Part shown: piece after piece, positions 1,320 to 30,708 of the stretch
Layout of the letters: each line of letters begins with the position of its first letter
Position numbering within the stretch: position 1 is the first letter of the stretch
From: Pseudomonadota bacterium
Lineage (GTDB): Bacteria; Bdellovibrionota_B; Oligoflexia; Oligoflexales; CAIYRB01
Length of the DNA: 32,013 nucleotides
NCBI GenBank assembly: GCA_043750715.1
Contig: JAYVBB010000524.1
Coordinates: 1 to 32,013 of the forward strand
Direction of reading: 5' to 3'
Notes under the pieces: model-generated
Database searches by the model: none
What the model saw: the letters and a program-made list of their open reading frames with translations, nothing else
Told to the model about the DNA's origin: nothing
Position numbers and translations under genes: made by a program

Positions 1320-1337
1320 ACTTTCGACGTCGAAAGT
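1320..1337. repeat. 18-bp perfect palindrome ACTTTCGACGTCGAAAGT, copy 1, with adjacent half copy ACTTTCGACG at 1339-1348
   Basis: Exact match read directly. Lies between the stop of 1337..1855(-) and the start of 1009..1254(-). Confidence 0.95.
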
Positions 1338-1855
1338 CACTTTCGACGCAGGTGTGACGGGATCACTGGCGCGTACCTTTTGACCTGGAAGCCAGGCGGA
1401 ATCTCTGCGGTCTGCATCTTCGGTCGGAGCGGTGCCTCAGACAGCATGACAACAGTGACTGGGCCCACCCAGGATCTATGAATGCTCTCAAACATCAACC
1501 ACTGCTTGTCGGTCAGCATCTTCGATCCAGCCAGATCGATAATGGTCTCGGCGGCCTCTGGTGGGCACTGTCGTGCCACTTCCCGGCAGACCTCGCGCCA
1601 GTTCAAAGGCGTCCAGCGATGGTCCATCCTCGGAATTTCCTGTTGCCGAAGAGCATCAGCTCTTCTTTTTTCCTCGCGAAAAGCTTGAGCGTCCACGTCG
1701 TGCTCTCCCTTTCTTTGCTTGCGCATGCGAAGTTTCTGTCTCTTGCGGCACTGGTAATAACGACCATTCCGATACCAGTGCTTCGAGTCTGTGGCAAATT
1801 CGCCACGGCAAAATTTACAGTGTTTGACTTTCATTGGCGGGTTGTTACCACCCAT
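1337..1855 (-). CDS. hypothetical protein with N-terminal zinc-ribbon-like CxxC motif and a basic region
   Basis: 172-aa ORF containing CKFC...C and KRQKLRMRKQRK. An alternative ATG lies at 1834. First gene of the leftward block. Its stop abuts palindrome copy 1. Confidence 0.55.
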   Translation of the reverse strand: MGGNNPPMKVKHCKFCRGEFATDSKHWYRNGRYYQCRKRQKLRMRKQRKGEHDVDAQAFREEKRRADALRQQEIPRMDHRWTPLNWREVCREVARQCPPEAAETIIDLAGSKMLTDKQWLMFESIHRSWVGPVTVVMLSEAPLRPKMQTAEIPPGFQVKRYAPVIPSHLRRK

Positions 1856-2222
1856 TTTTGTGAACGGTCAAATTTTTTGAGTCGTCAAAAACGGGTGTGT
1901 ATCTTTTTATTTTCCAAAGAGAAAAAAACTTCTTCTTGACAGGAAATGACGGGGAAGGCAATTTCGGCCTTCCCTCGCGTGCCTGCACGACAATTAACGG
2001 AACCTGAAACGGAACGCAAATTTAACTCAGATAAAAAAGAAAGATAATGGGGCGGAGCGAAGCGAACGCCCTGAAGCGAAGCCGCCAGGCGTAGCGACGA
2101 TAAGGATCGAAGCTTGCACCTCAAGAAAACATCCAACAAAATAATGAATAACTATATTTATTCTAAATCAGAGTTAACGCGGCCCACCGACGCAAAGATT
2201 AGTCCTCCTCTCGATCCTTACG

Positions 2223-2329
2223 GCAGAGAGTAAACCTCGCTACGCTCGGCCCTTCGGGCTAGTTTACTCTCTGCGAGGGGAACTTCGTTCCCCCAAAATC
2301 TTCTGCGAAGAGACCACCGCAGGAAGATT
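2223..2329 (+). ncRNA. candidate structured RNA or 5' leader (three consecutive stable hairpins)
   Basis: 13-bp stem 2223-2235/2262-2274 enclosing a GC mini-hairpin with a TTCG loop. 7-bp stem GGGGAAC/GTTCCCC at 2277-2293. 11-bp bulged stem 2297-2307/2318-2329. UUCG-type loops are only present if transcribed from the + strand. Confidence 0.3.
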
Positions 2330-2373
2330 GAAGATAGAACACGGCAGCAGAATGGAGTAGAAAGGCGACGTCC

Positions 2374-2391
2374 ACTTTCGACGTCGAAAGT
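2374..2391. repeat. 18-bp palindrome copy 2, overlapping an imperfect inside-out version at 2360-2379
   Basis: Exact match. Lies 38 bp upstream of the GTG at 2429. Confidence 0.95.
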
Positions 2392-2428
2392 CTCGCCATG
2401 CACGCCACCAAAATCCAAGAGGCGACAC

Positions 2429-2806
2429 GTGTCCCTAAAGAACGACCGACTAAGTCGGCTCGAAAGCCTATTTCGTCAGGGTGCCGCCACCACAGCGAAT
2501 GAGATGACCATCCTCGTCCAGTCAGGCGACGACATGATGCCGGGCGACGAGGTCTACGATAACGATTTCGAGAAATGGGAGCTGATCCAAAAACCCACAG
2601 GGTCCGTGAGAGAGTTCGATGTCGTAAGACGTAAAGTGTTCGATCCGATGGTGCTGCTGAAAACGATCTGCGAGGTCTATGATCTGGCCGACCGCGACTT
2701 CAAAGGCGGCGAGGGTCCGTGGTGGTCGTCGATGGACGTCTTTGTCAGCGAGGCAAAGCGGCGATTGGGGCAGAAAACGTTAGAACTCTATTCGAGGGAA
2801 GAATGA
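2429..2806 (+). CDS. hypothetical protein (125 aa)
   Basis: GTG start with AAGAGG 6 nt upstream. First gene of the rightward block. Confidence 0.6.
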   Translation: MSLKNDRLSRLESLFRQGAATTANEMTILVQSGDDMMPGDEVYDNDFEKWELIQKPTGSVREFDVVRRKVFDPMVLLKTICEVYDLADRDFKGGEGPWWSSMDVFVSEAKRRLGQKTLELYSREE

Positions 2807-3150
2807 TCAGGATCTACAAGTATGAGCTTCAGCTCACCGACGTGCAAAAATTGCTGATGCCGCAAGGCGCGGTGATCATTAAGGTGGGTGAGCAGAAGAA
2901 GATGCAGGAGGACAAGATGTACGGCGGGCAGTCGGTCCAGCCGGTCCTCTGCGCATGGGCGGTGGTAGACGATCAGCTCGAACCGATGCCGCACTCCGTG
3001 CGCGTTCTCGGAACGGGTCATCCGATCGACCAGAACGACGTCCTGGCCTACGACTACTTCGACACGACGATCATGAGCGACGGCTTCGTTTGGCACGTGT
3101 TCTTCGACAAGGACGCCCACACTGTGCATCGCGAAAGACTGGCGAAGTGA
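2803..3150 (+). CDS. conserved phage hypothetical protein (MIRIYKYELQLTDVQ... family)
   Basis: ATG in an ATGA overlap with the upstream stop. The N-terminus and the GTGHPI...FVWHVF pattern resemble a recurrent phage DUF. The ORF-track start at 2719 is probably too early. Confidence 0.6.
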   Translation: MIRIYKYELQLTDVQKLLMPQGAVIIKVGEQKKMQEDKMYGGQSVQPVLCAWAVVDDQLEPMPHSVRVLGTGHPIDQNDVLAYDYFDTTIMSDGFVWHVFFDKDAHTVHRERLAK

Positions 3151-3392
3151 GCGATCTCGAAGCCCGTTACCGCCACGCGCTCGCGACCGTCTGCGACGTC
3201 GTCGCCAAGATGCAGGAGGACACGCTGTCGCTTAAAAGCTGTGACTTCCTTCGCAAGGTCTGCCGCGAGGCGATGCCTGATCACCCGGCCTGGATGCAGC
3301 GGGCGAAACGGGTAAGCAAGGCCAAGAAGGGGATCACGCCGTTCATGGAGGCGCTGGACGAGGTGGAGGACTCCGGCCTGGATGAGCTATGA
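3147..3392 (+). CDS. hypothetical protein (81 aa)
   Basis: GTG in a GTGA overlap with the upstream stop. Good G/C3 bias. Confidence 0.5.
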   Translation: MSDLEARYRHALATVCDVVAKMQEDTLSLKSCDFLRKVCREAMPDHPAWMQRAKRVSKAKKGITPFMEALDEVEDSGLDEL

Positions 3393-3411
3393 GGTCGTAT
3401 AACTATACTAG

Positions 3412-4897: not shown

Positions 4898-4909
4898 CGG
4901 AGCCGGACG

Positions 4910-5978: not shown

Positions 5979-8900
5979 TTGCCGTTTTACCATGCGATGC
6001 GTGAAGAGAGACTGACACCAATAATTGGTTGCGAGTTTTACTTTGTAGAAGATCCGCTCATCAAGGACGAGACGAGCCGATCTGCGGCCCATCTCATTCT
6101 GCTGGCGAAAGATTTCGAGGGCTGGCTGAACCTGCTGAAGCTGTCGCGCTTGTCCTATGAAGAGGGCTTCTACTACAAGCCACGGATAGGGATGAAATGG
6201 CTCGCCACACACAGCGGCGGTCTGATCTGCCAGACGGCATGTCTTGGCGGCGTACTCTCAAGAGAGGTTTGGCGCGAGCGCGACGGCAAAAGCACCATCG
6301 GTCTTGAACAGCGCTGGCAGCAGTTCCACGCAATATTCGGCAACGATCTTTACGTGGAGTTCCAGGGTCATAATGCTCCCGATCAACAGTTGATCAACGA
6401 AGCGTTTGTTGCGCGTCTATCGCTGACGCCTGGGTTTCAGCATGTCTGTAGCAACGACAACCACTACATTCTTCCAGAGCATGCCAAAATCCAACTGCTG
6501 ATCAAGGCGTCGGCTTTCAAGAACGCGGAAGCTGCCGCCAGCTACACGAACTTCGACTCGCTCTGGCTTAAAAGCCCACGTGACGTCTACGAGACCTTTC
6601 GCGAGCACCACGAATACCTGCCGAAGGAGTTCATCGTTCGCGGTATGCGCTCGACCGAAGAGATCTTCGAGAAGTGTGCCAATTTCGAGCTGCCGAAGAA
6701 AAAGTATCTGCCGCGCTACAGCGACGACGGAGGCTTCTTCAAGACGCTGACGCTTCGGAAGCTGAAAGAGTTCCTGGCGAAAGAGGATTGGCGCTTCGCG
6801 TCCAAAGAGACCTACATCGAGCGTTTCAAGAACGAGTTCGAGGTGATCACGAAGTACGGGCTTCAGGACTATTTCCTGCTGGTCTGGGACATCGTCGAGT
6901 GGGCGAACAAGAAAGACATCTTCGTCGGCATCGGTCGCGGCAGCTCGGCGGGCAGCTTCATCTGCTACCTGCTCGGCATCGTCAAGATCAACCCGCTCCA
7001 ATACCGGCTGATCTTCGAGCGCATGCTGAACGCCAACCGCTGCGAGAACGGCGAGCTGCCGGATATCGATCTCGACTTCGAGAGCCTTCGCCGCAACGAA
7101 GTGAAGGACTACGTCTTTAAGAAATACGGCAAGGAGTACGTCTGCGAGATCGGCACCTATGGGCGGATGATGCTCAAGACGGCGATCGTCGATTTCGGGA
7201 AGCAATTCGGCTTCGAGGCACGGGATCTGGTGATGATCACCACGAATCTCGGGCTCGACAAGACGGACGCGCAAAGCCTCGACGCTGCGGTCGAGTCGTC
7301 GCCGAAGCTGAAGTCGATGATGGTCGAGCACCCGGATTACGAGCACGCGGTGAAGGTGGCGATCGGTCAGATCAAGAGCCAGTCGATTCACCCGGCAGGC
7401 GTGTTGATTTGCTCGGACCCGCTCGAAACGGTGACGCCGCTCAAGACGCAGAAGAAAGCCGACAAGGGTTCGAAGAAGGCTGGCGAGAACCGCGTGATCG
7501 TGACGCAGGCTGAAGATAAGCACGTGATCAGCCAGGGCCTCGTCAAGATGGATTTCTTGGGGCTGAAGGAATACGACATCTTCAAGTCGGTGATCGAGAA
7601 TGCGAAGGCTGCGGGCTACGAGCATGAACTGACGAGCAAGAACTACATCGACGTTATTCACGACGCTGAAGTGGCAAAACCCGACGCCAAAGTCTGGGAG
7701 CTGTTCCGCCAGGGAAAGACCGAGGCGGTGTTCCAGTTCGGCTCGGACGGCATGAAGCAGCTTTTGATCGACATGAAGGCAGACAGCTTGGCGGATCTTG
7801 TCGCCGCCGTTGCGCTCTATCGGCCTGGCTGCCTAGAGAACGGCTGGCACACGCAATACTACCGCCGCAAGGCTGGCGAAGAGGAAGTTGAGTTCGTGCA
7901 CCCGGTGCTCGAAAAGGTTCTGGCCGACACCTACGGCGTGGTGATCTATCAGGAGCAGTTCATGGAGGTATTCCATCTGCTCGGTGACGTGCCCATGGTG
8001 GACGCTGACACGATCCGCTCGGCGCTCGGCAAGAAGGACGTCGAGAAGCTGAACAAGTTCGAGGCGAAGTTCGTCAAGGGCGCGGCAAAGAAGATCGGCG
8101 AAGCTGAAGCGAAGGTCGTCTGGGATCAGCTCGCTAAAGCGTCGGGCTACACGTTCAACCGCTCGCACTCGGCGGTCTATGCGATCGTCGCCTATGTGAG
8201 CCAGTGGATGAAGGTGCACTTCCCGATCGCGTATTGGGCTGCCGTCGTCGATTGGAACTGCCGCAAGAAAGAGACCGACCTGCTCTCGAACAAACGCGCC
8301 GCCGCCGACATGGGCGTGCGCTTCCTGATGCCGGACATCAACAAGTCGAAGGTGCACTTCGCGATCGACGAAGAAGAGAAGATGCCGCGCTGGTCACTCT
8401 CGGGTATCTCGGGCATCGGGGAAAAGACCGCAGCCAACATCGTCGAAGGTCAGCCATACGCGACCGTCGAGGATTTCTTGAAGCGCATTCGCGGCGTCAA
8501 CATCAACAACAAGCTGACGCTGGCCTACGCGGGTGCATTTGACAAACTCTGCGACCGGAAGCAGGCGATTGACAAGATCTTCGCCACGAACAAGAAAAAG
8601 AAGAAACCGAAGATCACCGACTCGATGCTCCTCAGTTCCTATCATGCAGCTCTTGGATTCTTCGAGAGCAAGCTGGCGTCGATTTACAAAGGCATCAGCG
8701 ACAAGACCTGGAGTGAAGAGGAGGTCCGCGAAACCGCACCGGGTGAACCGCTGATGGTCGCGGGCATGGTGTCATCGATCAAGAAGGTCAAGACGAAGCG
8801 CGGCGATGTCATGGCGAAGGTGGGACTCGTCGATTCGGACGAGAGCTTCGAGCTGACGGTGTTCCCCGAGGCGTGGGCGATGTCGGTGATGGTCTTCCAG

Positions 8901-8995: not shown

Positions 8996-9418
8996 ATGAG
9001 CGTTAAGGATTTGGAAATTGCGATCGAAGGACTCCTGCCGCAAGAGATCCGCATCAAGCTGAAGGCAGAGCTGACCGTCTCGGAGGACTTGGAGCGCGAG
9101 GTCCGCCGTACAGCGGCACAGTTTGGATACTATGCGGTGCTCGCGGAGAAGGCCGAGTCCCGCCATCGTCGCGGCAAGCTTGGCTACGACATGTGGCGTA
9201 GCGGCTACGAGGACGAGCTGTCTCGCGACACGTCTTTCAAACGGGTGAAGGACCTGACGCGCCTTGTAATGCAGAGCCCGAAATACAAAGCTTGGATGCT
9301 CAAGCTGGATCAATATGAAGAAGAAGCAAGAATCATCAAGGCAATCGCCAAGGCGTTCGAGATCAAGAAAGATCTCGTCCAAACATCGGCGGCGGATCGT
9401 CGCAAGGAGATGCGGTAA
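8996..9418 (+). CDS. possible UvsY-like recombination mediator (140 aa)
   Basis: ATG 2 nt after the dnaE stop. Its size, helical pattern and position next to the gp32-like and UvsX-like genes fit UvsY. Loose by-eye similarity to T4 UvsY only. Confidence 0.4.
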   Translation: MSVKDLEIAIEGLLPQEIRIKLKAELTVSEDLEREVRRTAAQFGYYAVLAEKAESRHRRGKLGYDMWRSGYEDELSRDTSFKRVKDLTRLVMQSPKYKAWMLKLDQYEEEARIIKAIAKAFEIKKDLVQTSAADRRKEMR

Positions 9419-10338
9419 TGGCAATGAAGGTGGTGAAGGCTAAGTCGTCGGAAGAGGCAAAGCCGAAGAAGAAGTTGAAGGTCGTCGCGACCGAGCCTGA
9501 AGTTGATCCCGAGGAGCCAGACGAGGCTGAAGAGGAAAAGCCTGCGAAAAAGGCGAAGGCCGAAAAGCCCAAGAAGACTGCTGAGAAAGCACTTTCGACG
9601 TCGAAAGTCGAGGCGGTCGTTGTTGACTCGGTGAGTCTTCTCACAGAAGCGCGGGTCGCCTATAAAGCTTTCCAGGTTTCGTGGTTCGATTTCGCCAAGA
9701 AGTTGAAGGAAATTCGTGATGCCGAGGCGTGGCATGCGAGTGGGCAGGAGGACTTCACGTCGCTCTGTCGCGAGGAGTTCCCCGACATCCCGGCGTCTAC
9801 GATCTCGAAGTTCATCAAGGTCGTGGAAGAGTTCGGACCGGCGATGGAGGCGCGTGTGAAAGGGCTGAAAGCGCTGCCGTCGTATGATGCTCTGTATGAG
9901 GTGGCGGTCAACGAGAAGAAGATCCCGAAGGAAGATTCGATGCGCCTCCGCAAGGCGGTCGTCGATTGCAAGATCTCGGTGCGGGAGGTGCGGGAGGTCG
10001 TTCGCGGTCTCGTCTCAAAGAAGCCGACGAAGCACGCCGAATCGCGGGAAGAGAAGAAGAAGGTCAGGCGCGAAGAGATCGGCCTCAAGACGGAGGATGC
10101 GGAAGCCTCGGATGAAGATGTCGAGGTGGACGAGAAGGAAGAGATCACGTCGAGCATCGACAAGAATGCCGACGCGCTGCTCAAGCTGGTCAGGAAGCTG
10201 ATCAGCGACATCCCGGCGATCACGTCGTCGATGAAAGAAGGGACGGCGAAGCTGATCGAGCTGGCTGAGGCGATGGAAGAACTGCACGTCCAGAACAACG
10301 AGTTCTTGGATAAACTCGAAACGGTGTCGAACTCCTAA
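9418..10338 (+). CDS. hypothetical protein with Lys/Glu-rich N-terminal low-complexity region; possible DNA-binding protein
   Basis: TAATG overlap with the upstream gene. 306 aa. Contains palindrome copy 3 in frame (LSTSKV). Confidence 0.6.
   Translation: MAMKVVKAKSSEEAKPKKKLKVVATEPEVDPEEPDEAEEEKPAKKAKAEKPKKTAEKALSTSKVEAVVVDSVSLLTEARVAYKAFQVSWFDFAKKLKEIRDAEAWHASGQEDFTSLCREEFPDIPASTISKFIKVVEEFGPAMEARVKGLKALPSYDALYEVAVNEKKIPKEDSMRLRKAVVDCKISVREVREVVRGLVSKKPTKHAESREEKKKVRREEIGLKTEDAEASDEDVEVDEKEEITSSIDKNADALLKLVRKLISDIPAITSSMKEGTAKLIELAEAMEELHVQNNEFLDKLETVSNS
9591..9608. repeat. 18-bp palindrome copy 3 (inside a CDS)
   Basis: Exact match. Encodes LSTSKV in the low-complexity N-terminal region. 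Confidence 0.95.
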
Positions 10339-19206: not shown

Positions 19207-19339
19207 TCAGGACCAAACCGAAGAGATCGTGAAGAGCGTCAACCCGGACACGGGCTTCATGAAGAGCAAAAGCCTCTGTCAGAAATGCCACGGACCGTTG
19301 CGCAAATGCGAGCGGCTCGAATGCCCGCAGAAAGGGTAA
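19181..19339 (+). CDS. small Cys-rich protein (52 aa; below the ORF-track cutoff)
   Basis: I translated this myself: MSEKKLDHDQDQTEEIVKSVNPDTGFMKSKSLCQKCHGPLRKCERLECPQKG. Strong G/C3 bias. It fills the gap before 19342. Confidence 0.5.
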   Translation: MSEKKLDHDQDQTEEIVKSVNPDTGFMKSKSLCQKCHGPLRKCERLECPQKG

Positions 19340-19341
19340 CC

Positions 19342-20217
19342 ATGAAGCTCGGAATGAACGTCGCGGTCACGGCTGACGACGACGGCGCGGACTTTATCGG
19401 AACCTGCGTCACTTCGGCCAACATGCGAGGTCTCAGACTCGTCGCCGAACCGAAGGTGGATCTGACCGCCGCGATCAAAGCGCTGAAGGCTAACAAGGCG
19501 AAAGCAGCGCTATCGGTCTACAGGATCACTCAGGCATCGTCGATGGCCGACAGTGCCCGCTTCATGTCAGAGGAAAGCTTCGCCGAGATCACACGTCTCT
19601 ACTCGGAGGCATGCTTCGATCTGCCGGTCGAACAGTCGCTTGGCGTCGTGCTACCCGAGGGTCTCGAACTGATCATGCGCGTTGGCAGGACTCAGTCGCG
19701 CTTCGGCGTGCTGCGAGAACAACTGATCGCCAGGCTCAACACGCTGGCTGACGTGATCCGCTCGGCAGGCCATAAGGTGGTGCTCCCCTCGCGCTTCGAG
19801 GACATCATCGCGCTGACGTGGCACAACTTCAAATGCGACATCATCGACATCGAGATGATGATGTCCAAGCGTCTCGACTTCGACTCCAGCTTCCAGGACT
19901 CACTGGCTCGGCTGAACAAACCGTTCTGGTTCGGTCGCGCCGGAATGATGGGCGGTTACATCATGCCAGCCGAGCAGGCCAAGTTCCTGCGGAAACTGAT
20001 CGGCATGCAGATCGGTGCGGACTACGCCTTCCTCTGGTCCGAGCCAGGCTCACCGCGCTGGGAGTGGTCCAAGGACGGCAAGTTCTTGGTGGACATCCTC
20101 GGGCCGACCATCCAGGCCATGCAGACTCAGAGAGTGCTCACGGGCGATCCTGTCGTCGCAGGCTGGAAGCAGCGGAAGCGCGAGGAACTTTCGACGTCGA
20201 AAGTGGTGAAGAAGTGA
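19342..20217 (+). CDS. hypothetical protein (291 aa)
   Basis: ATG 19342 follows the stop of the small upstream ORF. Contains palindrome copy 4, 10 codons before its stop. Confidence 0.6.
   Translation: MKLGMNVAVTADDDGADFIGTCVTSANMRGLRLVAEPKVDLTAAIKALKANKAKAALSVYRITQASSMADSARFMSEESFAEITRLYSEACFDLPVEQSLGVVLPEGLELIMRVGRTQSRFGVLREQLIARLNTLADVIRSAGHKVVLPSRFEDIIALTWHNFKCDIIDIEMMMSKRLDFDSSFQDSLARLNKPFWFGRAGMMGGYIMPAEQAKFLRKLIGMQIGADYAFLWSEPGSPRWEWSKDGKFLVDILGPTIQAMQTQRVLTGDPVVAGWKQRKREELSTSKVVKK
20187..20204. repeat. 18-bp palindrome copy 4 (inside the 3' end of a CDS)
   Basis: Exact match. Encodes LSTSKV in the same frame as copy 3. Confidence 0.95.
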
Positions 20218-20456
20218 GGCAGCTACTCGCCATCAAGAAATTTGGTGAGCGCTACCCGGAGGCGCTCCAAACCATCGGCTTTCGCCGCAAAGAGCGTTTC
20301 TACCTCCAGAACCTCGACTTCCCCGCCGATCGCGTCACGTTCAAACACGACAGCGAGCAAAGAAAAATCACCATAGAAATCACGCTGAACGAGGACGAAT
20401 ACTTGGCAGTCGGATCGACTTCTGGTATCGCCACGAAGCAGACAATCGAGGGGTAA
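20214..20456 (+). CDS. hypothetical protein (80 aa)
   Basis: GTGA overlap with the upstream gene. The ORF-track start at 19818 is too early. Confidence 0.5.
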   Translation: MRQLLAIKKFGERYPEALQTIGFRRKERFYLQNLDFPADRVTFKHDSEQRKITIEITLNEDEYLAVGSTSGIATKQTIEG

Positions 20457-20462: not shown

Positions 20463-21881
20463 GTGGCGAAGAAGAACGACGAAAAAGTTGTGCACCTGTG
20501 CGTAGTTAAAGACTACCTGCCCATCGAATCGCTCCAGTTCTACCCGGATAACCCCAGGAAAATCAGCCCCATCCGCCTCATCCAAATGAAGGCGTCGATC
20601 CGCGAAAAGGGCTTCTACGAGCCGATCGTCGTGCGCCGTAAGGGCTCGGTCATCCTGTCGGGTAATCATCGCACCAGGGCCGTCCTGGAGCTTCAGGATG
20701 AGGGTCTCCAGTTCCGCTCACCGGATGGCAAGCTCGGCGTGCTGCCGGTCGTGATCGTGGACGTGGACGATGCCACGGCTGAGGCGATCCTGTTCGAGAC
20801 CAACAACCATTACGCCGAGTGGATCGAGGAGCAGGTCCAGGCCGTGCTCACCGCCGCCACCGAGGCTGGTCGAAACATCCAGAGCTACGGCTTCAACCAA
20901 GACGACATCGACCGCTTTGTCGTCAAAGCGACGGAAGAGGCCAAGACGCAGGTGGAAGCGCATGAACGCGCTCTTCCCGCGAAGACGGAAGACAACCTTC
21001 CCGAGAAGGTCACCACGAAGGTGAAGCCGGGCGAGATCTGGCAGCTCGGTCGCCACCGCATGATGTGCGGTAGCTCGACGAAGATCGAGGATGTCGAGAT
21101 GCTCGCGGACGGTCAGCTCATGGAGCTGTGCTTCACGTCACCGCCATATGCCGATCAGCGCGATTACAAATCGAAAGATGGAGATGATCTGTCGCCTGCT
21201 GGACTCGCGAAGTTCATCACGCTGGCACGCGAGTATGTGAAGCTATTCGCAATCAACCTCGGTATGAGCCGTAAGAACGGCGAAGTGAATCGTTACTGGG
21301 ATCATTACATTCGTGAGGCCGAGAGCTGCGGACTCAAACTCTTGAGCTGGAACGTGTGGCACCAGGGCTTCAGCGGCTCGGTAGCCAAGCTGACGGCCAT
21401 GTTCCCCATCGCGCATGAATGGGTGTTCGTGTTCGGCGAGAAGGTGAAGCGTCTGAATCCCACCGTCGATAATAAGACGGCGGGCAAGCTCAACATCGAC
21501 ACCACGGTGCGTGAGGTGAACGGTGAGATCACGTCTCGCGAGCCGGTGACGATTAGAGAGAAGCGTGAGATGGGCACGGTGATCGACCTGCCGCCATATG
21601 TCGCACGCAATGAGGATCTGGATCATCCCGCGATGTTCCCGGTTGCACTGCCTGAAGCCTATATCGAGTCTTGCACTGACGAGGACGAGATCGTATACGA
21701 GCCTTTCGGCGGCTCTGGCTCGACGCTCATCGCAGCGGAGAAAACCAACAGACGCTGCTTCATCATGGAGATAGAGCCAAGCTACTGCGGCATCATCATC
21801 GAGCGCTGGGAGCGCTTCACCAGCCTGAAGGCCGACAAGATTTATCCACCTGTCGTGCTCAAGAAGAAGAAAGCCAAATGA
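20463..21881 (+). CDS. ParB-N (sulfiredoxin-like) domain fused to a beta-class N6A/N4C DNA methyltransferase
   Basis: N-terminus LPIESLQFYPDNPRKI...ILSGNHRTRA. Methyltransferase motif IV FTSPPY comes before motif I YEPFGGSGSTLIAAE, which is the beta-class order. Confidence 0.8.
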   Translation: MAKKNDEKVVHLCVVKDYLPIESLQFYPDNPRKISPIRLIQMKASIREKGFYEPIVVRRKGSVILSGNHRTRAVLELQDEGLQFRSPDGKLGVLPVVIVDVDDATAEAILFETNNHYAEWIEEQVQAVLTAATEAGRNIQSYGFNQDDIDRFVVKATEEAKTQVEAHERALPAKTEDNLPEKVTTKVKPGEIWQLGRHRMMCGSSTKIEDVEMLADGQLMELCFTSPPYADQRDYKSKDGDDLSPAGLAKFITLAREYVKLFAINLGMSRKNGEVNRYWDHYIREAESCGLKLLSWNVWHQGFSGSVAKLTAMFPIAHEWVFVFGEKVKRLNPTVDNKTAGKLNIDTTVREVNGEITSREPVTIREKREMGTVIDLPPYVARNEDLDHPAMFPVALPEAYIESCTDEDEIVYEPFGGSGSTLIAAEKTNRRCFIMEIEPSYCGIIIERWERFTSLKADKIYPPVVLKKKKAK

Positions 21882-24541: not shown

Positions 24542-24843
24542 ATCCAGAGCATGATGCTGATGACGTGCCCTGGGAAGCCTACAGCATCACCTCTGTCTAT
24601 CTCAGATATGAAGGCGATGAGGAGCCAAAGCCCGTGATCAACGTGACATGCCAAGGCTGCCACACCACCTACTTCATGCAGCTCGGTCGATGCCCCAAGT
24701 GTCGAAAACGCTGCCATGAGCACAGGCCAAAGGGCAAGAAACAGAAGCCGCAGCAGGCGGGAAAACCACCGCAGCCAGTCTCGGCATTCCTGACCGAAGT
24801 AGTTGGGGTCAAGAAGAAAAAGCTTTATAGAGAGGGTTCTTGA
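24538..24843 (+). CDS. zinc-ribbon protein (CQGC...CPKC) with a basic tail
   Basis: TTG start overlapping the upstream TGA. Confidence 0.5.
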   Translation: MNPEHDADDVPWEAYSITSVYLRYEGDEEPKPVINVTCQGCHTTYFMQLGRCPKCRKRCHEHRPKGKKQKPQQAGKPPQPVSAFLTEVVGVKKKKLYREGS

Positions 24844-24844
24844 A

Positions 24845-24991
24845 ATGCCGAAGATTAGCGAGGTCACTGTTATTGAACACGCTCGTCCTGGTTTTGATCT
24901 GATGATTGCCACGGACGACTCGAACGTGACCGAGATCGCTTGGTTCCCGCATAAAGACTGTGAGCCAGTGGTGACAAAGGAGACTCCATGA
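24845..24991 (+). CDS. hypothetical small protein (48 aa)
   Basis: ATG 24845, just after the upstream stop. Its stop TGA (24989-24991) overlaps palindrome copy 5. Confidence 0.45.
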   Translation: MPKISEVTVIEHARPGFDLMIATDDSNVTEIAWFPHKDCEPVVTKETP

Positions 24992-25008
24992 CTTTCGACG
25001 TCGAAAGT
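24991..25008. repeat. 18-bp palindrome copy 5 (extends to a 24-bp perfect palindrome at 24988-25011)
   Basis: Exact match. Intergenic, 33 bp upstream of ATG 25041. Confidence 0.95.
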
Positions 25009-25040
25009 CATTCCACCAGCCCAACGGGCGGGAGCAAGCC

Positions 25041-25505
25041 ATGACCGTGTCGAAAGAATGCCATGGGTTTATGTCTATCTCGGCACATCCAGAAACGCTT
25101 ACGGAAGGTGAACACGCCTACTGGCCGACCGGACAGAGCGTAGGCATAGTCTCATTCGCGCTCAAGAAGGAGGGTGTCACGCTCTCTCAGAGAAAGATCG
25201 CAATCAAGGACCTTTCTCCGGGGCAACCCATCCTAAGGATCGTGATCGGAACAGAGGGTGCCGCCAGCGACGACGGCGAGACTAAACTCTCGTGGAGGGT
25301 TACTGATGGCGAGATCTACACCGTCGAGCTTGAAGCCAGCGGCAGGGCCAACTTCAAGATTGGAGCCATTGGTCAGTTCGAGGGCAACGGCAGCGCTTCA
25401 TTGTCGATTACGTCTGTGGTGGGTAGGGTCGAAAGCGTCACGGAGTCAGGGAAAACGATATGGCAGGAAGAAGTGAAGAAGATACTTTCGTATGCGAAAG
25501 AGTAA
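25041..25505 (+). CDS. hypothetical protein (154 aa, beta-rich)
   Basis: GGGAG 6 nt upstream of the ATG. A degenerate palindrome copy sits at its 3' end (25484-25501). Confidence 0.6.
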   Translation: MTVSKECHGFMSISAHPETLTEGEHAYWPTGQSVGIVSFALKKEGVTLSQRKIAIKDLSPGQPILRIVIGTEGAASDDGETKLSWRVTDGEIYTVELEASGRANFKIGAIGQFEGNGSASLSITSVVGRVESVTESGKTIWQEEVKKILSYAKE

Positions 25506-25582: not shown

Positions 25583-26434
25583 ATGGCAGATAAGCCTCGG
25601 TTTCAAAGGAGCGGGAAGAAGCCCACGCGAGTTACAGCGGACGTGCCAAAAGCTCCTCCGGGCTTCGTCACACCCGACTCGACGGGCGATACCAAGACGG
25701 GGAAGCCTCGTTCCAGGGCCGCACTGGAGAACGTGAATGCAGAGCGCCAGGCCACGGAGTTAAGGAAGCTTCAGCACGAGAAGCAACGGCTCGACGATCA
25801 GCTTCTTATGACTGAGTGGGCGCTGACAGGTGGCCGCATCCAGGTGTTCACCTGGCTGCAAGAGGTGAAGGGCTTCAGCCTGGCCCACGCCCGGTTCATC
25901 GTTACACGCAGGCCGATCCCTCAGTGGTCGAGGATTCTCGAATACGTCCAGAACAACTACTCGAACAATCTAGTGAAGCGTCACATGGAGTCGGCGGCAC
26001 AGGCCAACGACCAGCACATGATGGCGGCACGCCTCGGCATGGCAAAGGCGATGGAGTTTCTCTCGAAGCTGACGATCGAGGAGGCCATCGACAAGAACGG
26101 CAATCCCTACTTCAAGAAGTTTCGAACCACTGACCTCAAGAACTGCATGGAATCGATCATGATCGCGCAGAAGATCACCAGGGTCGCCCTCGGCCTTCCG
26201 ACCGACGAGGGCTCGGTCCACATCTGGCAGAAGATCCAACAGAGCTTCGGCACCAACCCGATGCCGGAAGACACACCAACTGAGACGGTGGTGGAGGGCG
26301 AACCGATCAAGGATCAGGTGATGCGGCTCCAGAAGTCGTATACCTACGACGAGATCAAAGAGATGGTTTCGGCCTTTAAGAATGCGGGACTGACGGGCGA
26401 TGCGACGGTGATCGACACGGAGACGACAAAGTGA
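25583..26434 (+). CDS. hypothetical protein (283 aa) with a basic N-terminus
   Basis: Follows a 77-bp AT-rich intergenic gap. I can support no function. Confidence 0.6.
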   Translation: MADKPRFQRSGKKPTRVTADVPKAPPGFVTPDSTGDTKTGKPRSRAALENVNAERQATELRKLQHEKQRLDDQLLMTEWALTGGRIQVFTWLQEVKGFSLAHARFIVTRRPIPQWSRILEYVQNNYSNNLVKRHMESAAQANDQHMMAARLGMAKAMEFLSKLTIEEAIDKNGNPYFKKFRTTDLKNCMESIMIAQKITRVALGLPTDEGSVHIWQKIQQSFGTNPMPEDTPTETVVEGEPIKDQVMRLQKSYTYDEIKEMVSAFKNAGLTGDATVIDTETTK

Positions 26435-26443
26435 GGAAAGACG

Positions 26444-28405: not shown

Positions 28406-28411
28406 AGAGCG

Positions 28412-28633
28412 ATGCTGCGTCTCGAAGCCATACCTCACCTCGACTTCTTCAACGTGTTTGAAGGTGACCGCTCCATCGGGACGGTCAGTGCGAAGGAGCT
28501 TCACGACGTATTCGACGACATCACTATGATCGTCCACCTTGACGGCGACCACGCACACCGAATGCAGCTTCATCTGAGTGCCAAACGTAACAACAGATCG
28601 CTTTTCGAAGAGGCGATCGAGGAGATCCGATGA
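28412..28633 (+). CDS. hypothetical protein (73 aa)
   Basis: ATG 28412. Coupled to the next small ORF. Confidence 0.5.
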   Translation: MLRLEAIPHLDFFNVFEGDRSIGTVSAKELHDVFDDITMIVHLDGDHAHRMQLHLSAKRNNRSLFEEAIEEIR

Positions 28634-28761
28634 CTCTGCGCCAAGCCGTGTGCGAGACGTGCAAGAAGGAATTCAGAACCAATCAGAAGGGCCGGCACAA
28701 CTGCTACACGTGCTCGCCGATTCGTAAAGACGCCAAGCCGAAGCCGGTGGGTGAGTCGTGA
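28630..28761 (+). CDS. small zinc-ribbon protein (43 aa; below the ORF-track cutoff)
   Basis: ATGA overlap upstream and GTGA overlap downstream. I translated it myself: MTLRQAVCETCKKEFRTNQKGRHNCYTCSPIRKDAKPKPVGES. Confidence 0.5.
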   Translation: MTLRQAVCETCKKEFRTNQKGRHNCYTCSPIRKDAKPKPVGES

Positions 28762-29276
28762 TTAAGCGCTGCATGATCGACCTTGAATGCTTCGGGCAAG
28801 AGCACGATGCCGCTATCTGCCAAATCGGTGCGGTCTGGTTTGACCTCGAAGGCAATGCGAACAACGGCATCCAACTGAACGTCGATGCAAGAGACGCGGT
28901 CCGCCACGGCGCGACGGTCACGGTCGATACGATCTATTGGTGGTTGCAGCAGGAAGAGGCCGCACGCAAGTCAGTCTGCGAGCCGGGCATGACGGAGCTG
29001 GAGGCGTTGACCCGCTTGAATGAGTATTGGCAAGACGCCGACGAAGTCTGGAGCCATGCCACCTACGACTTCGTGATCGTTCACAATGCGATGAAACGCC
29101 GTGGCCTAAGGAATACCGTCAGCTTTCGGAAGGCTATGGACATTCGCACGCTGGTTGCGCTTGCGCCGCCGATGCCTCTTAAGGAGCGAATCGGCACTCA
29201 TCACACTGCACTCGACGATGCGATCTACCAGGCGCGATATGTCGGCCCCATGATCAAGAGAATCAAGGACCAGTGA
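28758..29276 (+). CDS. DEDDh 3'-5' exonuclease (DnaQ-like / Rv2179c-like fold)
   Basis: MIDLECFG (Exo I), ICQIGAV, WSHATYDFVIV (Exo II) and HHTALDDAIYQA (Exo III, H-x4-D). Confidence 0.7.
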   Translation: MIKRCMIDLECFGQEHDAAICQIGAVWFDLEGNANNGIQLNVDARDAVRHGATVTVDTIYWWLQQEEAARKSVCEPGMTELEALTRLNEYWQDADEVWSHATYDFVIVHNAMKRRGLRNTVSFRKAMDIRTLVALAPPMPLKERIGTHHTALDDAIYQARYVGPMIKRIKDQ

Positions 29277-29277
29277 G

Positions 29278-29472
29278 ATGAACCGCCACTATGGCTGCCA
29301 GCACAATCGCGTTACCGACGACTACCAATGCTACGATTGTGGCGCCGGCCTGAATCCTGAAGAGCTGCCAGCCCACCTGCAAGGACTCTCGACTGCATTC
29401 GTGATCGAGTACCCCATTCCGCACGGGCTCGCCAACCCCGACGCCACGGTGATCAAATGCAAAGGATCATGA
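29278..29472 (+). CDS. hypothetical small Cys-containing protein (64 aa)
   Basis: AAGGA 9 nt upstream of the ATG. Confidence 0.5.
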   Translation: MNRHYGCQHNRVTDDYQCYDCGAGLNPEELPAHLQGLSTAFVIEYPIPHGLANPDATVIKCKGS

Positions 29473-29933
29473 TCGTCTGCGGCGTCCCAGGATCAGGAAA
29501 GACCTGGGTCTGCGAACAGCTCACGCAGAAGTTCAAATACATCCCACACGATCACTATATCGGTCGGATCGGTGAGCCAGGGCGATTCGGATCAGCCGAT
29601 CGCCCACCATCGGAAAAACCGTTCCTCGATGCACTGGAGAAGGCGGCGATGGAAGGCGACCAGCCCGTCCTGACCGAATGCCCGTTTGCCGAACGGGAGT
29701 TGGTCACGCAGCTTCTGAGGCGCGGACTCTCGGTCGATAGCGTGTTCATCGTCGAGCCAGTCGAGATTGTCAGGGAGCGCTACCACAAGCGTTCAGGCAA
29801 GGACATCTCGAAGAGCACGGAGACGCGCTGTAAGACGATCGTCAACCGCGCCGTCGAGTGGAACAAACGCTACGGACGCTGCGAGAGCGTTCTCAAATAT
29901 TTGCAAGACCTGCAGCTGGAGCCAGCGCCATGA
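29457..29933 (+). CDS. P-loop NTPase / kinase-like protein
   Basis: Walker A GVPGSGKT close to the N-terminus. The alternative start ATG 29469 is more typical. Confidence 0.6.
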   Translation: MQRIMIVCGVPGSGKTWVCEQLTQKFKYIPHDHYIGRIGEPGRFGSADRPPSEKPFLDALEKAAMEGDQPVLTECPFAERELVTQLLRRGLSVDSVFIVEPVEIVRERYHKRSGKDISKSTETRCKTIVNRAVEWNKRYGRCESVLKYLQDLQLEPAP

Positions 29934-29994
29934 GGCCACTCGTTATGCTCGCCATGATAGTATTTATAGCTTGGATGATTACGAGGACGTGCCG

Positions 29995-30186
29995 ATGAAA
30001 ACGCTTAGAGCCACCATCGAATTCCCAGTCACCGACGATTGTGACATGAGCATGGCGCTGCTTCGCCTTTCGGTCCAACTCAGAGAGATGTCACGCGAGG
30101 CGTGGCCCGACGCATTTGTCTGGCCCAATGCATGGCCAGAGGCGTCAGATGCGGGGTGGCGACTTGATGCAAAATTCGAAGGCTGA
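29995..30186 (+). CDS. hypothetical protein (63 aa)
   Basis: GAGGA 8 nt upstream of the ATG. Preceded by the AT-rich stretch GATAGTATTTATAGC. Confidence 0.5.
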   Translation: MKTLRATIEFPVTDDCDMSMALLRLSVQLREMSREAWPDAFVWPNAWPEASDAGWRLDAKFEG

Positions 30187-30376
30187 GTTCACGCGAGAAG
30201 AAATACTTCGAAGGATCGAAACATTCTTCGGCTCGACTCCCGAAGGCATCGCTAAGGCGAAGCTTTGGTATGAGTCGGCAAATCCGATGCTCGGCGGCAT
30301 TACACCCAGCGAGATGGTTGATTTGGGACGCAGCGGCTATCTGATGCGTTGGATCGACAGCCAGCTCGGCAGCTAG
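30167..30376 (+). CDS. stand-alone DUF2384-like (Xre/MbcA/ParS antitoxin toxin-binding) domain protein (69 aa)
   Basis: AKAKLWYESANPMLGGITPSEMVDLGRSGYLMRWIDSQLGS matches the family signature (A..W....NP.LGG.TP.E......G...V...L). Confidence 0.55.
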   Translation: MQNSKAEFTREEILRRIETFFGSTPEGIAKAKLWYESANPMLGGITPSEMVDLGRSGYLMRWIDSQLGS

Positions 30377-30609
30377 TCGCAGTCATCCATCTTCTCGTCG
30401 CAGCAGTAGGGATTGCCAGGCCCGCATGGCGGCGTCGCCATGGAATCCTGAGGCGTCGCGTGGCGAAGAGCCAGTTCAGTCTCGACGAGGACGAGGCGCT
30501 TTTCGAGAGCGTTCAGCTTGTTCAGCAGAGCCACTGGCTCTGCTAGCTCGGTCTTGTTCAAAGAACAGCCAGTCAAAACAAAGAGAAGCGGGAGGATTCG
30601 TGGAAACAT
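30373..30609 (-). CDS. lipoprotein (lipobox LTGC) with a coiled-coil segment and Cys-rich C-terminus
   Basis: The signal peptide MFPRILPLLFVLTG|C, an Lpp-like heptad segment, and the C-terminus PPCGPGNPYCCDEKMDDCD. It is the only reverse-strand gene inside the rightward block. TGAGG lies 10 nt upstream of the ATG. Confidence 0.65.
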   Translation of the reverse strand: MFPRILPLLFVLTGCSLNKTELAEPVALLNKLNALEKRLVLVETELALRHATPQDSMATPPCGPGNPYCCDEKMDDCD

Positions 30610-30690
30610 ATTCGTGAAACCTCATAGAATTGAAGTGGGAGTTCGGATATTGTTAGAGCATACTAACGCCTTAAACAACTCGGCAGTCAC

Positions 30691-30708
30691 ACTTTCGACG
30701 TCGAAAGT
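30691..30708. repeat. 18-bp palindrome copy 6 (20-bp with flanks, 30690-30709)
   Basis: Exact match. Lies in the divergent intergenic region between the lipoprotein gene (-) and 30724 (+). Confidence 0.95.

Follow-up and report, generated by a model that had tools for sequence, protein, structure and literature searches.

Identical 18-bp palindromes dispersed among the early genes of an uncultured phage: candidate parS-/operator-like sites

Introduction

The canonical parS site is TGTTTC-ACGT-GAAACA, and 12 OB sites are present on plasmid RK2. In phage lambda, the O gene belongs to the replication module and contains the palindromic site of its own product in a linker-coding stretch; ori-lambda lies inside this gene, with four clustered iterons at one locus. 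It has been reported that the OB sites of RK2, an IncP plasmid, are identical short palindromes which are dispersed, some of them promoter-proximal and others far from promoters, and that KorB, a ParB-family protein which binds them, is a global transcriptional repressor, one OB site also serving partition (PMC11790492). Cluster A mycobacteriophages carry many near-identical stoperators genome-wide, mostly in short intergenic gaps, where one phage protein binds and halts transcription; subclusters differ in their site sequence, which co-evolves with the repressor (PMC9283540, PMC6550527). The plasmid-prophage N15 has a few separate centromere sites, IR1-4, bound by the ParB-family protein SopB (PMC7205306).

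The window analyzed here is a 32,013-nt stretch of DNA from a large family of uncultured phages (contigs up to ~119 kb), and it contains six exact copies of an 18-bp perfect palindrome, ACTTTCGACGTCGAAAGT. The family motif, A-N-TTTC-N-ACGT-N-GAAA-N-T, is parS with one additional base pair per half, a likeness that a first-pass annotation of this DNA had recognized and that proved exact. The arms AGTTTC and AATTTC (relatives L109, L100 and L111) are those of parS and of the Noc site NBS, the sites are near-exact and multi-copy as in these systems, the best fold matches of the candidate binder, a 306-aa phage protein, are Noc and the ParB DNA-binding domain, and the site within the candidate's own gene is reminiscent of parS within parB. 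However, the phage site has 18 bp rather than 16 bp, canonical parS is absent from the window, the candidate lacks the CTPase domain and an accompanying ParA among the genes scanned, its sequence-level homology is below significance, and the phage sites are spread at gene junctions instead of clustered near the origin. With KorB-OB the phage shares identical short palindromes dispersed over a mobile replicon and a candidate DNA-binding protein of ParB type. KorB, in contrast, has an N-terminal CTPase clamp domain and the partners KorA and IncC, OB is a 13-bp site of other sequence, and the replicon here is a large, probably lytic phage. Stoperators are likewise near-identical, lineage-specific in sequence and distributed across a phage genome, but they are asymmetric 13-14 bp sites oriented with transcription and serve a monomeric immunity repressor of temperate phages, whereas the sites in the window are perfectly palindromic and immunity or integration genes were not observed. 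Like the phage here, N15 has a small number of inverted-repeat sites at separate places in its genome; its SopA/SopB proteins of full ParB architecture and its plasmid lifestyle have no counterpart found here. As in lambda, a site lies inside the candidate binder's gene within the replication module, but the phage sites are single copies over at least 30 kb rather than four clustered iterons.

Results

An exact search of the window placed ACTTTCGACGTCGAAAGT at 1320, 2374, 9591, 20187, 24991 and 30691, the same six positions given in the first-pass annotation, against 0.01 copies expected; at least six copies occurred in none of 100 shuffles. A degenerate search of the window recovered no copies with one to three mismatches. 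The copies are identical, with no graded degeneracy, and their flanks were not conserved. The central GACGTC occurred 16 further times in the window outside the motif. No T-run followed any copy and the predicted hairpin was weak (-6.3 kcal/mol), which agrees with the earlier view that these are not classical terminators; the stem was lengthened by the flanks at copies 2, 5 and 6. Rfam contained no family matching the sites, and no sigma-70-type promoters were detectable at them. The sites and the gene of the candidate binder are as follows.

1320..1337, no strand: copy 1, between the co-directional leftward genes 1337-1855 and 1009-1254, overlapping the stop codon of 1337-1855 by 1 nt
1339..1347, plus strand: extra (third) half-site ACTTTCGAC, 1 nt after copy 1
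2374..2391, no strand: copy 2, 37 nt before the GTG (2429) of the first rightward gene 2429-2806, within the early intergenic region of 573 bp from which transcription diverges
9418..10338, plus strand: gene of the 306-aa protein, candidate site-binding protein by fold match and in-gene site
9591..9608, no strand: copy 3, codons 58-64 of the 306-aa ORF, in the disordered N-terminal tail, encoding LSTSKV
20187..20204, no strand: copy 4, within the last 10 codons of ORF 19285-20217, 9 nt before the GTG of the 80-aa gene 20214-20456
24991..25008, no strand: copy 5, intergenic, beginning at the last base of the 24803-24991 stop codon, 32 nt before the gene at 25041
25484..25501, plus strand: degenerate seventh copy ACTTTCGTATGCGAAAGA, arms kept and centre non-palindromic, within the final codons of 25041-25505; the gene at 25583 starts 81 nt further on
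30691..30708, no strand: copy 6, between the divergent genes 30373-30609 (small, leftward, minus strand) and 30724-31311 (plus strand), 15 nt before the ATG of the latter

Placement was non-random: intergenic DNA made up 6.1% of the window in our ORF map, and 4 of 7 site centres were intergenic (P = 4e-4). All placement statements of the first-pass annotation held on checking; the half-site, the seventh copy and the 80-aa gene had been missed. Copy 1 together with ACTTTCGAC is a one-and-a-half site, and copy 5 with its flanks forms a 24-bp palindrome (24988-25011). Because of the 80-aa gene, copy 4 sits shortly (9 nt) before a start codon. At the orthologous junction of L104 this copy was absent and the upstream ORF ended ~9 codons earlier, so that copy 4 appears to have been gained at this tight junction between genes. 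A promoter-like block, TTGAAG-N17/18-TAGAGCATACT, lies 22-32 nt upstream of copy 6 and is conserved in the window, L101 and L105, so this copy is probably transcribed and within a 5' UTR. In most coding contexts the 18 bp (6 codons) were read through as LSTSKV.

Genomes of the relatives are roughly 110 kb, and our comparison covered parts of them. The same site type was found in every relative examined, each genome having its own variant (centres GACGTC, AACGTT, TACGTA, ACCGGT, GGCGCC, GACGTA and GTCAAC):

L097: AACGTT centre
L100: AG..GGCGCC..CT, three copies
L099: GTCAAC centre, three copies
L104-107 and L230: ACCGGT centre
L101 and L232: GACGTC centre
L109: TTTCGACGTCGAAA, at least seven copies and one degenerate, with more copies elsewhere on this contig
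L110: AACTTCGACGTAGAAGTT, four copies, all with the same asymmetry
L111, L144, L164, L170, L184 and L146: TACGTA centre

Most changes between variants hit both halves simultaneously, central bases included. Among 12 site variants, 94.4% of position pairs were complementary and two-sided changes were seen in 5 of 9 pairs, including the innermost 8-11 and 9-10; these values were reached by none of 500 shuffles. The asymmetric L110 variant occurred in both orientations relative to transcription. In several copies (window 25484, all L099 copies and L104 8351) the arms were kept but the centre was non-palindromic or the spacing odd.

We found that the same gene position in different genomes carried each genome's own variant. 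The position of copy 2 was best conserved among clade relatives having the first rightward gene, with sites 26 nt (L097) and 12 nt (L100) before the orthologous gene, and in L099 one gene further upstream, 7 nt before a 62-aa gene which precedes the ortholog (7900-8217). The equivalent early intergenic region of L109 contained a cluster of four exact core copies and one degenerate copy, followed by an AT-rich T7A7 tract and four ~20-bp direct repeats. Similarly, sites orthologous to copy 6, in the divergent region before the 30724 orthologue, were present in L101 (one mismatch) and L105/L107 (ACCGGT variant), and in-gene sites orthologous to copy 3 in L232, L230, L099 and L100. DnaE of lineages sharing site positions was 64-78% identical to that of the window. 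The earlier suggestion that the copies are maintained by selection is thus borne out, the motif class being kept in relatives with lineage-specific two-sided changes. Own variants at each orthologous position suggest concerted evolution with a trans-acting specificity factor. On the other hand, the proposal that the sites partition the window into functional modules was not supported, since site number and position vary strongly among close relatives (one in L097 versus three in the window); L097, the closest relative, had one site in 23 kb and none in its 306-aa gene.

The 306-aa gene directly follows DnaE in all relatives; it is part of a replication/recombination module, with DnaE on one side and the SSB-like and RecA-like genes on the other, and carries the lineage-specific site in 5 of 6 close lineages. 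In its product, a disordered tail rich in Lys and Glu (residues 1-69) is followed by an all-helical core (71-220) and, at the C terminus, by a helical hairpin (243-305). An AlphaFold model, built from an input alignment of 60 sequences, had a mean pLDDT of 79, mostly >90 in the folded helical segments. The fold of the core resembles ParB-type DNA-binding domains: its two best PDB matches were Noc 7ng0 (probability 0.99, rmsd 3.0 Å over 114 columns) and then the parS-bound ParB DNA-binding domain 6s6h, with weak Foldseek E values of 0.2 and 1.8. Hhalign aligned KISVREVREVV of this protein with ParB KLSVRETEAL at a probability of 2.5%; no sequence method reached accepted thresholds for ParB homology, and the ParB_N (CTPase/ParA-interaction) domain was absent according to Pfam. 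In the putative recognition helix, the residue two before the conserved Thr was Tyr with sites starting AG/AA, Ala/Thr with AC/TT, and Val in L110 (AACTTC arms), a hint of residue-site covariation that comes from about two independent transitions. The window and L109 have the same 14-bp core and different putative recognition helices, which speaks against this protein as the reader of the sites.

On this modeled fold and the orthologous in-gene site in five lineages, the 306-aa protein, one of three binders proposed earlier, has the best case as candidate. The other two were not supported: the ParB_N-methyltransferase has no recognizable helix-turn-helix in its ParB-like part and its fused methyltransferase domain differs between the window and L104, and the zinc-ribbon protein had no detectable BLAST match across the relatives. 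Because the comparison covers parts of the ~110-kb genomes, the true binder could be encoded elsewhere in them.

Discussion

The first-pass annotation had listed several roles for the palindromes and chosen none; selection, the non-terminator nature, the parS likeness and the 306-aa candidate found support, and the two other binders and the module partition did not. We favour, at roughly even odds (about 0.5), the reading that the 18-mer is a dispersed parS-/operator-like double-stranded DNA site of a two-fold-symmetric phage protein, likeliest the 306-aa protein, acting genome-wide. Two-sided changes and own variants at orthologous positions argue for a sequence-specific trans-acting factor that reads duplex DNA rather than a simple hairpin. 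The 306-aa protein would have a ParB/Noc-type helix-turn-helix domain but no ParB CTPase domain; a disordered basic/acidic tail lies N-terminal to the former, and the helical hairpin on its C-terminal side could mediate dimerisation. Such a dimer would recognise the conserved arms (A-N-TTTC ... GAAA-N-T) together with the lineage-specific central hexamer, and each lineage would have its own exact site because sites and protein co-evolve. With sites at the heads of both divergent transcription regions, at tight gene junctions and in the binder's own gene, the bound protein may regulate genome-wide through promoter-proximal repression or elongation roadblocks, and the in-gene site may allow autoregulation. 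We infer both the binding by this protein and transcriptional control as its outcome, and favour control in the manner of KorB or stoperators, exerted at gene junctions and the heads of operons.

It is also possible, though unlikely, that the palindromes act in RNA, as 7-bp hairpins in 5' UTRs and intercistronic junctions which are read by a sequence-specific RNA-binding protein or RNase and affect mRNA stability, processing, translation initiation or antitermination, as do lambda nut/boxB, coat-protein translational operators and REP-type mRNA stabilisers. A start codon follows many sites at a distance of 7-16 nt, with the Shine-Dalgarno sequence immediately 3' of the site (copies 4 and 6, L099 7667, L100 7659, L109 9112, L111 1738 and L101 7486); such positions, and the probable 5' UTR location of copy 6, fit an RNA element no worse than an operator, and the flank-extended stems point the same way. 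The arms-only or oddly spaced copies, with free 4-5-nt centres, would be tolerable for a hairpin signal and count against an operator, as do the single site of L097 and the lack of detectable sigma-70-type promoters at the sites. However, the innermost positions are self-complementary through independent two-sided changes (ACGT, CCGG, GCGC), for which a tetraloop gives no reason, the arm sequence itself is conserved beyond pairing, the hairpin is weak and without an Rfam family, and leftward and rightward transcription units are served alike, as are both orientations of the L110 site.

Less probable still is that the 306-aa protein is an origin-binding protein and the palindromes its iterons, as for lambda O. 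The gene position after DnaE, the site in the linker-like tail region in five lineages and the L109 cluster with its AT-rich tract and direct repeats are consistent with an origin, but the window sites are single, spread over 30 kb without clustering at an AT-rich unwinding element, several are within tight gene junctions, L097 retains only one, and we know of nothing that links ParB-type helix-turn-helix domains to initiation.

That the sites are enzyme targets, be it of the ParB_N-methyltransferase or of a nuclease, nickase or homing endonuclease from phage or host, is very unlikely. In favour of it, the central hexamers GACGTC, AACGTT, ACCGGT, GGCGCC and TACGTA are all type-II-like, restriction/modification-type palindromes, the window and L104 differ in this centre as well as in which methyltransferase domain is joined to the conserved ParB_N module, and genome bins of Bdellovibrionota show the 18-mer linked to DUF222-HNH endonuclease genes. 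Against it, the additional GACGTC copies mean that this hexamer alone is not special, the conserved 6-bp arms exceed what an enzyme site needs, neither the window nor the relatives yielded an HNH-DUF222 homologue, and a cleavage target within essential genes and at the head of every operon would come at a high cost.

Slightly less credible again is a true partition centromere, in which a phage persisting as a plasmid prophage would use the sites as parS of a ParABS-type system, dispersed as are the separate sites of N15 (PMC7205306). Besides the parS-like motif and the ParB-like fold, the exact 18-mer occurs twice inside a parB-like gene beside parA in Leptospiraceae contigs, and beside a ParB gene in a Spirochaetia genome bin; the Leptospiraceae occurrence fits the favoured reading as well. 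In the phages, however, neither the ~50 window ORFs scanned nor the Pfam-annotated gene tables of relatives contained a gene for a ParA-type ATPase, an integrase, a protelomerase or plasmid replication, the candidate binder lacks the ParB N-terminal domain, and the gene content, with DnaE, UvsW, UvsX-like RecA, SbcCD and RNase H, speaks for a lytic phage of large size.

A selfish REP/RPE-like miniature element, copying into junctions and in frame into genes with no phage function, is the least probable: identical copies within a genome, the insertion-like copy 4, read-through as LSTSKV, the shared asymmetry of 4 of 4 L110 copies and bacterial REP-like families with the same core would fit it, but a recent copying burst leaves unexplained why orthologous sites are kept and switch in concert across lineages, no transposase or RAYT was found, and 18 bp is, to our knowledge, too short for known transposition machinery.

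Operator-like control by a symmetric phage protein is thus the reading we favour. The six palindromes are a real feature of the early genes of this uncultured phage, and the differences in site sequence between related phages point to an accompanying trans-acting reader of duplex DNA.

Copies of the 18-mer and their placement in the window

The first-pass annotation had counted six identical copies of an 18-bp perfect palindrome, and a scan of the window together with dinucleotide-preserving shuffles (mean of 0.01 matches; 0 of 100 reached six) confirmed that ACTTTCGACGTCGAAAGT occurs exactly six times. No further copies with three or fewer mismatches were present in the window. The six copies have unrelated flanks; the repetition is thus confined to the 18-mer. 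L-numbers below denote fetched DNA stretches from phage relatives or bacteria.

Sites and neighboring genes in the window
1320: copy 1, exact
1339-1347: extra half-site ACTTTCGAC, directly after copy 1
2374: copy 2, exact
9418-10338 (+): gene of the 306-aa protein, the candidate site binder
9591: copy 3, exact, within the 306-aa gene
20187: copy 4, exact, 9 nt upstream of the start of an 80-aa gene
20214-20456: 80-aa gene
20463-21881: ParB_N-methyltransferase gene
24991: copy 5, exact
25484-25501: degenerate seventh copy ACTTTCGTATGCGAAAGA, arms kept, center not
25583-26434: gene of a 283-aa protein
30691: copy 6, exact

Two of the six exact sites are in divergent intergenic regions, three are in or at the edge of co-directional gaps and one is intragenic. 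By our ORF map, 6.1% of the window is intergenic, as are four of the seven site centers (binomial P = 4e-4). The 80-aa gene, which was absent from the earlier description, occupies the apparent 245-nt gap ahead of the ParB_N-methyltransferase gene and has a clear orthologue in a phage relative (L104:4781-5023); the orthologous gene junction there lacks copy 4, and the upstream ORF stops about 9 codons earlier. The earlier view that the copies are not classical intrinsic terminators also holds, as no T-run follows any copy. The only terminator-like matches touching sites were minus-strand stems at copy 2 (2386-2366) and at the degenerate copy (25500-25485); for the five remaining exact copies, the scan did not report the hairpin of the 18-mer alone. 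Like the terminator scan, a sigma-70 consensus promoter scan of the window was uninformative, Rfam and tRNA scans found nothing, and a literature search for the 18-mer sequence found no paper containing it.

Two other elements were observed in this part of the window. At 909-926, in the leftward gene block, lies a perfect 18-bp palindrome, TCGTGATCCGGATCACGA, that occurs once and has no sequence relation to the main motif. Besides, the early divergent intergenic region (1856-2428) is unusually long (573 bp), AT-rich at 1856-1930 and 2130-2170, and carries several GC-rich hairpins at ~2228-2330, e.g., GAGAGTAAAC...GTTTACTCTC and GGGGAAC-TTC-GTTCCCC. It had no Rfam match and may serve as an origin or yield a structured leader or ncRNA.

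A family of large uncultured phages

Megablast against GenBank phages found no nucleotide relative of the window, and tblastn of its DnaE against deposited phages gave at most 31% identity. Dozens of DnaE relatives with 45-78% identity were found in a large protein collection, on contigs of up to ~119 kb. The window shares with these relatives the gene order DnaE, 141-aa gene, 306-aa gene, SSB-like, RecA, zinc-ribbon and SbcC, which makes it a fragment of one member of a large family of uncultured phages. An IMG/VR search with back-translated peptides returned distant DnaE loci only, or no match. Pfam and PHROGs searches of ~50 window ORFs detected no recognizable HTH regulator, sigma factor, RNA polymerase, integrase or ParA, and the examined parts of family genomes showed neither an integrase nor a ParA nor a repressor. 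Inteins were observed in several relatives, with one in the DnaE of L099 (10001-14212), two in the DnaE of L100 (10001-15196) and a homing-endonuclease intein interrupting the RecA of L109 (15970-17877); DnaE and RecA of the window are intein-free.

Lineage variants of the site

DNA of relatives was taken around DnaE, the 283-aa protein and the 306-aa protein, and a degenerate IMG/VR scan was added. We found the same type of 18-bp site in every lineage examined.

Site variants by lineage
Window, L101/L232: ACTTTC-GACGTC-GAAAGT
L097: ACTTTC-AACGTT-GAAAGT
L104-107/L230: ACTTTC-ACCGGT-GAAAGT
L100: AGTTTC-GGCGCC-GAAACT (three copies)
L099: (T/A)(T/G)(T/C)TTC-GTCAAC-GAAAG(T/C) (three copies)
L109: A(A/G)TTTC-GACGTC-GAAA(T/C)T (7 exact-core copies on L109; more on the remaining contig and a companion contig)
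L110: AACTTC-GACGTA-GAAGTT (four copies)
L111, L144, L164, L170, L184, L146: A(G/C)TTTC-TACGTA-GAAA(C/T)T

Among 12 site variants, mirrored positions were complementary in 94.4% of cases, and five of nine mirrored pairs had changed on both sides; neither value was reached in any of 500 shuffles. The two-sided changes include the innermost pairs, 8-11 and 9-10 (ACGT, CCGG, GCGC). A hairpin would place these two pairs in its loop, where they would be free to vary; their joint change is therefore our chief reason to think that the site is read as duplex DNA with two-fold symmetry. The asymmetric L110 variant is present in both orientations relative to transcription.

It had been proposed that related phages be searched for the motif, and its class proved to be present in all lineages examined, at recurring gene positions. 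Three such positions recur across lineages, and at each of them the site is the variant of its own genome.

Recurrent site positions
(a) Upstream of the first rightward early gene: window copy 2; L097 6537; L100 7659; L099 7667, one small gene further upstream; L109, five clustered sites (four exact, one degenerate) within 180 bp of the same long intergenic region (7881-8765)
(b) Divergent region ahead of the orthologue of the gene at 30724: window copy 6; L101 7486; L105 3233
(c) Stretch of the 306-aa gene encoding the N-terminal tail: window, GC-ACTTTCGACGTCGAAAGT; L232, GC-AGTTTCGACGTCGAAAGT; L230, GC-ACTTTCACCGGTGAAAGT; L099, GT-AGCTTCGTCAACGAAAGT; L100, GT-AGTTTCGGCGCCGAAACT; L097, without a site

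The fixed positions and the joint switch to a genome-specific sequence point to a trans-acting specificity factor co-evolving with the sites; neither a recent copying burst nor plain drift would be expected to produce them. Site number is plastic (one in L097 versus three in the comparable stretch of the window). The 18-mer system is clearly under selection.

The 306-aa protein as candidate binder

No Pfam, PHROG or PDB sequence match was found for the 306-aa protein, whose family has 92 representatives in a library of 1.84 billion proteins. Pfam, run on it and on six orthologues with a cutoff as loose as E <= 10, detected no domain, and 60 family members likewise gave none; the ParB N-terminal CTPase domain (PF02195) is thus among those not found in these proteins. 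AlphaFold was run with a 60-sequence alignment, giving a mean pLDDT of 79, mostly >90 in the folded helical segments; a model from five sequences was too poor.

Regions of the 306-aa model
Residues 1-69: disordered tail, in which the in-gene site is translated as LSTSKV
Residues 71-220: all-helical core
C-terminal part: helical hairpin

The best Foldseek match of this model among 350,542 PDB chains was Noc (7ng0; probability 0.99, E 0.2, rmsd 3.0 A over 114 columns), followed by the ParB DNA-binding domain bound to parS (6s6h, E 1.8); the remaining PDB matches were generic helical bundles, and those in a viral structure library were uncharacterized phage proteins and one DUF3102 protein. Sequence and profile searches against ParB did not reach significance: hhalign aligned a short stretch only, KAVVDCKISVREVREVVRGL with QKVIANKLSVRETEALAREM (E 0.018, probability 2.5%), and by eye the segment FTSLCREEFPDIPASTISKFIKVVEEF resembles ParB QTALAEEVGKSKATISNTLRLLEL. 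Judging from the predicted structure, a ParB-type fold is likely, not established, and a stand-alone protein of this fold is the probable reader of the sites. The 306-aa protein had no significant homology to DUF222 or to the ParBs of Leptospiraceae or Spirochaetia.

A hint, suggestive only, links the protein to site sequence. The residue two positions before a conserved Thr in the putative recognition helix is Tyr in L100, L109, L111, L144 and L184, whose sites begin AG or AA, Ala or Thr in the window clade, whose sites begin AC or TT, and Val in L110, which has AACTTC arms and whose nearest relatives (L144, L184) both have Tyr. This apparent covariation amounts to about two independent transitions, hence its limited weight, and against it the window and L109 have the same 14-bp core with different helices. 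As a separate observation, the gene following the 306-aa orthologue of L109 has at its 3' end a 15-bp tandem repeat, AAGAAGCTGAGGAAG-like, of about six copies (15559-15651).

Relation to parS and to the ParB_N-methyltransferase

Canonical parS is the 16-bp TGTTTC-ACGT-GAAACA, and this sequence, TGTTNCACGTGAAACA, does not occur in the window. The initial suggestion that the motif resembles parS with one extra base per half fits the family consensus A-N-TTTC-N-ACGT-N-GAAA-N-T, in which one base pair is added between each arm and the ACGT center; the sites here have 18 bp rather than the 16 of the ParABS system and retain the parS arms and center. ParB proteins typically have a site within their own gene, and here too a site lies within the gene of the candidate binder.

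The only ParB_N domain in the window (Pfam) is that of the methyltransferase fusion. Its ParB_N-containing module of ~190 aa is conserved between the window gene and L104:5029-6591 and is fused to two different methyltransferase domains, a case of domain shuffling inside one phage family. An L104-type methyltransferase without the ParB_N module was observed in the leftward block of L099 (4617-6029, minus strand). The window fusion protein had also been offered as a reader of the sites, a proposal for which we found no evidence; its N-terminal module has no recognizable HTH. ParB_N-methyltransferase fusions are common in phages, and their function is unknown (PMC12704722).

The same 18-mer in bacteria

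Scans for the exact 18-mer in metagenomes and genomes gave 66 and 26 loci, respectively, most of them unrelated to the phage studied here. With nine free positions, only 4^9 = 262,144 perfect 18-bp palindromes are possible, and by our arithmetic ~9 chance matches are expected in 596 Gb; the bacterial occurrences are therefore treated as probable coincidences. About 35 contigs of metagenome Ga0105164 are bacterial chromosome; for example, L005, from a high-GC bacterium, encodes SAM decarboxylase, Asd, ParA and ParB. In L005-L069 (Ga0105164 / Ga0209824 contigs) the 18-mer belongs to a REP-like, often clustered repeat family with inverted, DnaA-box-like arms, GTTATCCACGG ... CCGTGGATAAC (TTATCC(A/C)CNG...CNG(G/T)GGATAA), and interchangeable palindromic cores centered on ACGT (ACTTTCGACGTCGAAAGT, ACTTGCAACGTTGCAAGT, TACCGCCAACGTTGGCGGTA, TTTCCAACGTTGGAAA). 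Kineosporiaceae and Spirochaetia genome bins have it embedded in longer repeats of their own.

Several loci carry the motif in or near genes. In Bdellovibrionota bins (L079, L081, L075, L094, L078), multi-copy DUF222-HNH endonuclease genes have one 18-mer ~60 bp upstream of the start and a second ~35 codons before the HNH domain, encoding a conserved (L)STSK(V). A Leptospiraceae parB-like gene directly downstream of parA (L059:897-1808; also L089, L037, L041; 30% GC) contains two exact 18-mers 219 bp apart, both translated LSTSKV, and the motif is kept in the diverged orthologous locus L041. There the 18-mer is probably the parS of that replicon, a parallel to the phage in-gene site. In L024 (1709-2041), an ATG directly precedes the palindrome, and the N-terminus of a 110-aa ORF, MTFDVES, is encoded there; copy 5 of the window (24988-25011) has the same ATG-palindrome-CAT layout with an ORF of only 18 codons. 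A rule that in-gene sites are always in the LSTSKV frame was dropped because L024 and the site at L104 4149 are read in another frame.

Proposed function and alternative explanations

Overall, this undescribed phage family has a system of dispersed, co-evolving sites that are parS- or operator-like. The sites occupy the heads of two divergent regions and tight gene junctions, and one is inside the gene of the candidate binder. We give a probability of roughly one half to the model in which a dimer of the 306-aa protein would bind each site and control transcription genome-wide, by promoter-proximal repression or as an elongation roadblock, and would regulate its own gene as well.

The main rival, an element acting at the RNA level, appears unlikely to us. 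Many sites lie 7-16 nt upstream of a start codon, a promoter-like block that is conserved (TTGAAG-N17/18-TAGAGCATACT) precedes copy 6 by 22-32 nt, and arms-only site variants occur, as an RNA element might have it; however, the site center remains self-complementary, the arms are kept in sequence beyond mere pairing, and the 18-mer hairpin has an energy of only -6.3 kcal/mol. A further rival, an origin or initiator role, is suggested by L109, where the site cluster gives way to an AT-rich tract containing T7A7, then to cttgcctttcctggcat as a four-fold direct repeat, with tatagaggg repeated just before the first gene; such a layout resembles that of an origin or of a complex operator.

It is quite improbable that the system is a "split ParB". 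In such a case the 306-aa protein would be a stand-alone ParB-type DNA-binding part recognizing an expanded 18-bp parS, and the other part would be the ParB_N (NTPase) module fused to interchangeable DNA methyltransferases. The sites would be loading points from which the recruited NTPase-methyltransferase would spread or slide over the phage DNA; the resulting methylation would serve anti-restriction or mark the genome as self against co-infecting relatives, and the fast-evolving site center would be a private address for each lineage. A true centromere is disfavored by the failure to find ParA, as CbiA, AAA_31 and ParA matches were absent from the ~50 window ORFs and from the Pfam-annotated gene tables of L097-L111 (partial genomes). 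An enzyme target is countered by 16 more occurrences of GACGTC in the window outside the motif, and a selfish mini-element is contradicted by the orthologous sites.

For genome-wide control by the 306-aa dimer, the closest analogues are KorB/OB on RK2 (PMC11790492) and the stoperators of Cluster A mycobacteriophages (PMC9283540, PMC6550527). KorB operators are identical palindromes dispersed over the replicon in promoter-proximal, distal and intragenic positions, the same arrangement as here. Stoperators are asymmetric 13-14-bp sites oriented with transcription, whereas the sites here are perfect palindromes. Stoperator sequence also varies among lineages in step with the binder; here, lineage-specific variants stand at orthologous positions, and a parallel change in the 306-aa protein is only hinted at. 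The site system is not a new category and is a variation on KorB/OB, parS and stoperators.

If the model is true, the early genome of a large uncultured phage family (~110-kb genomes) is organized or regulated through a parS-like code, whose reader is a ParB DNA-binding domain without the CTPase clamp, either by loss or from the start, and the ParB/Noc/KorB theme would be extended to probably lytic phages. The site variants at orthologous positions, at least seven, would provide a natural series for the evolution of ParB-type HTH specificity, including a change in half-site spacing relative to parS. The motif would also be a cheap metagenome marker for members of the phage family and for the heads of their transcription units, and may be of use in predicting regulatory incompatibility among co-infecting relatives.
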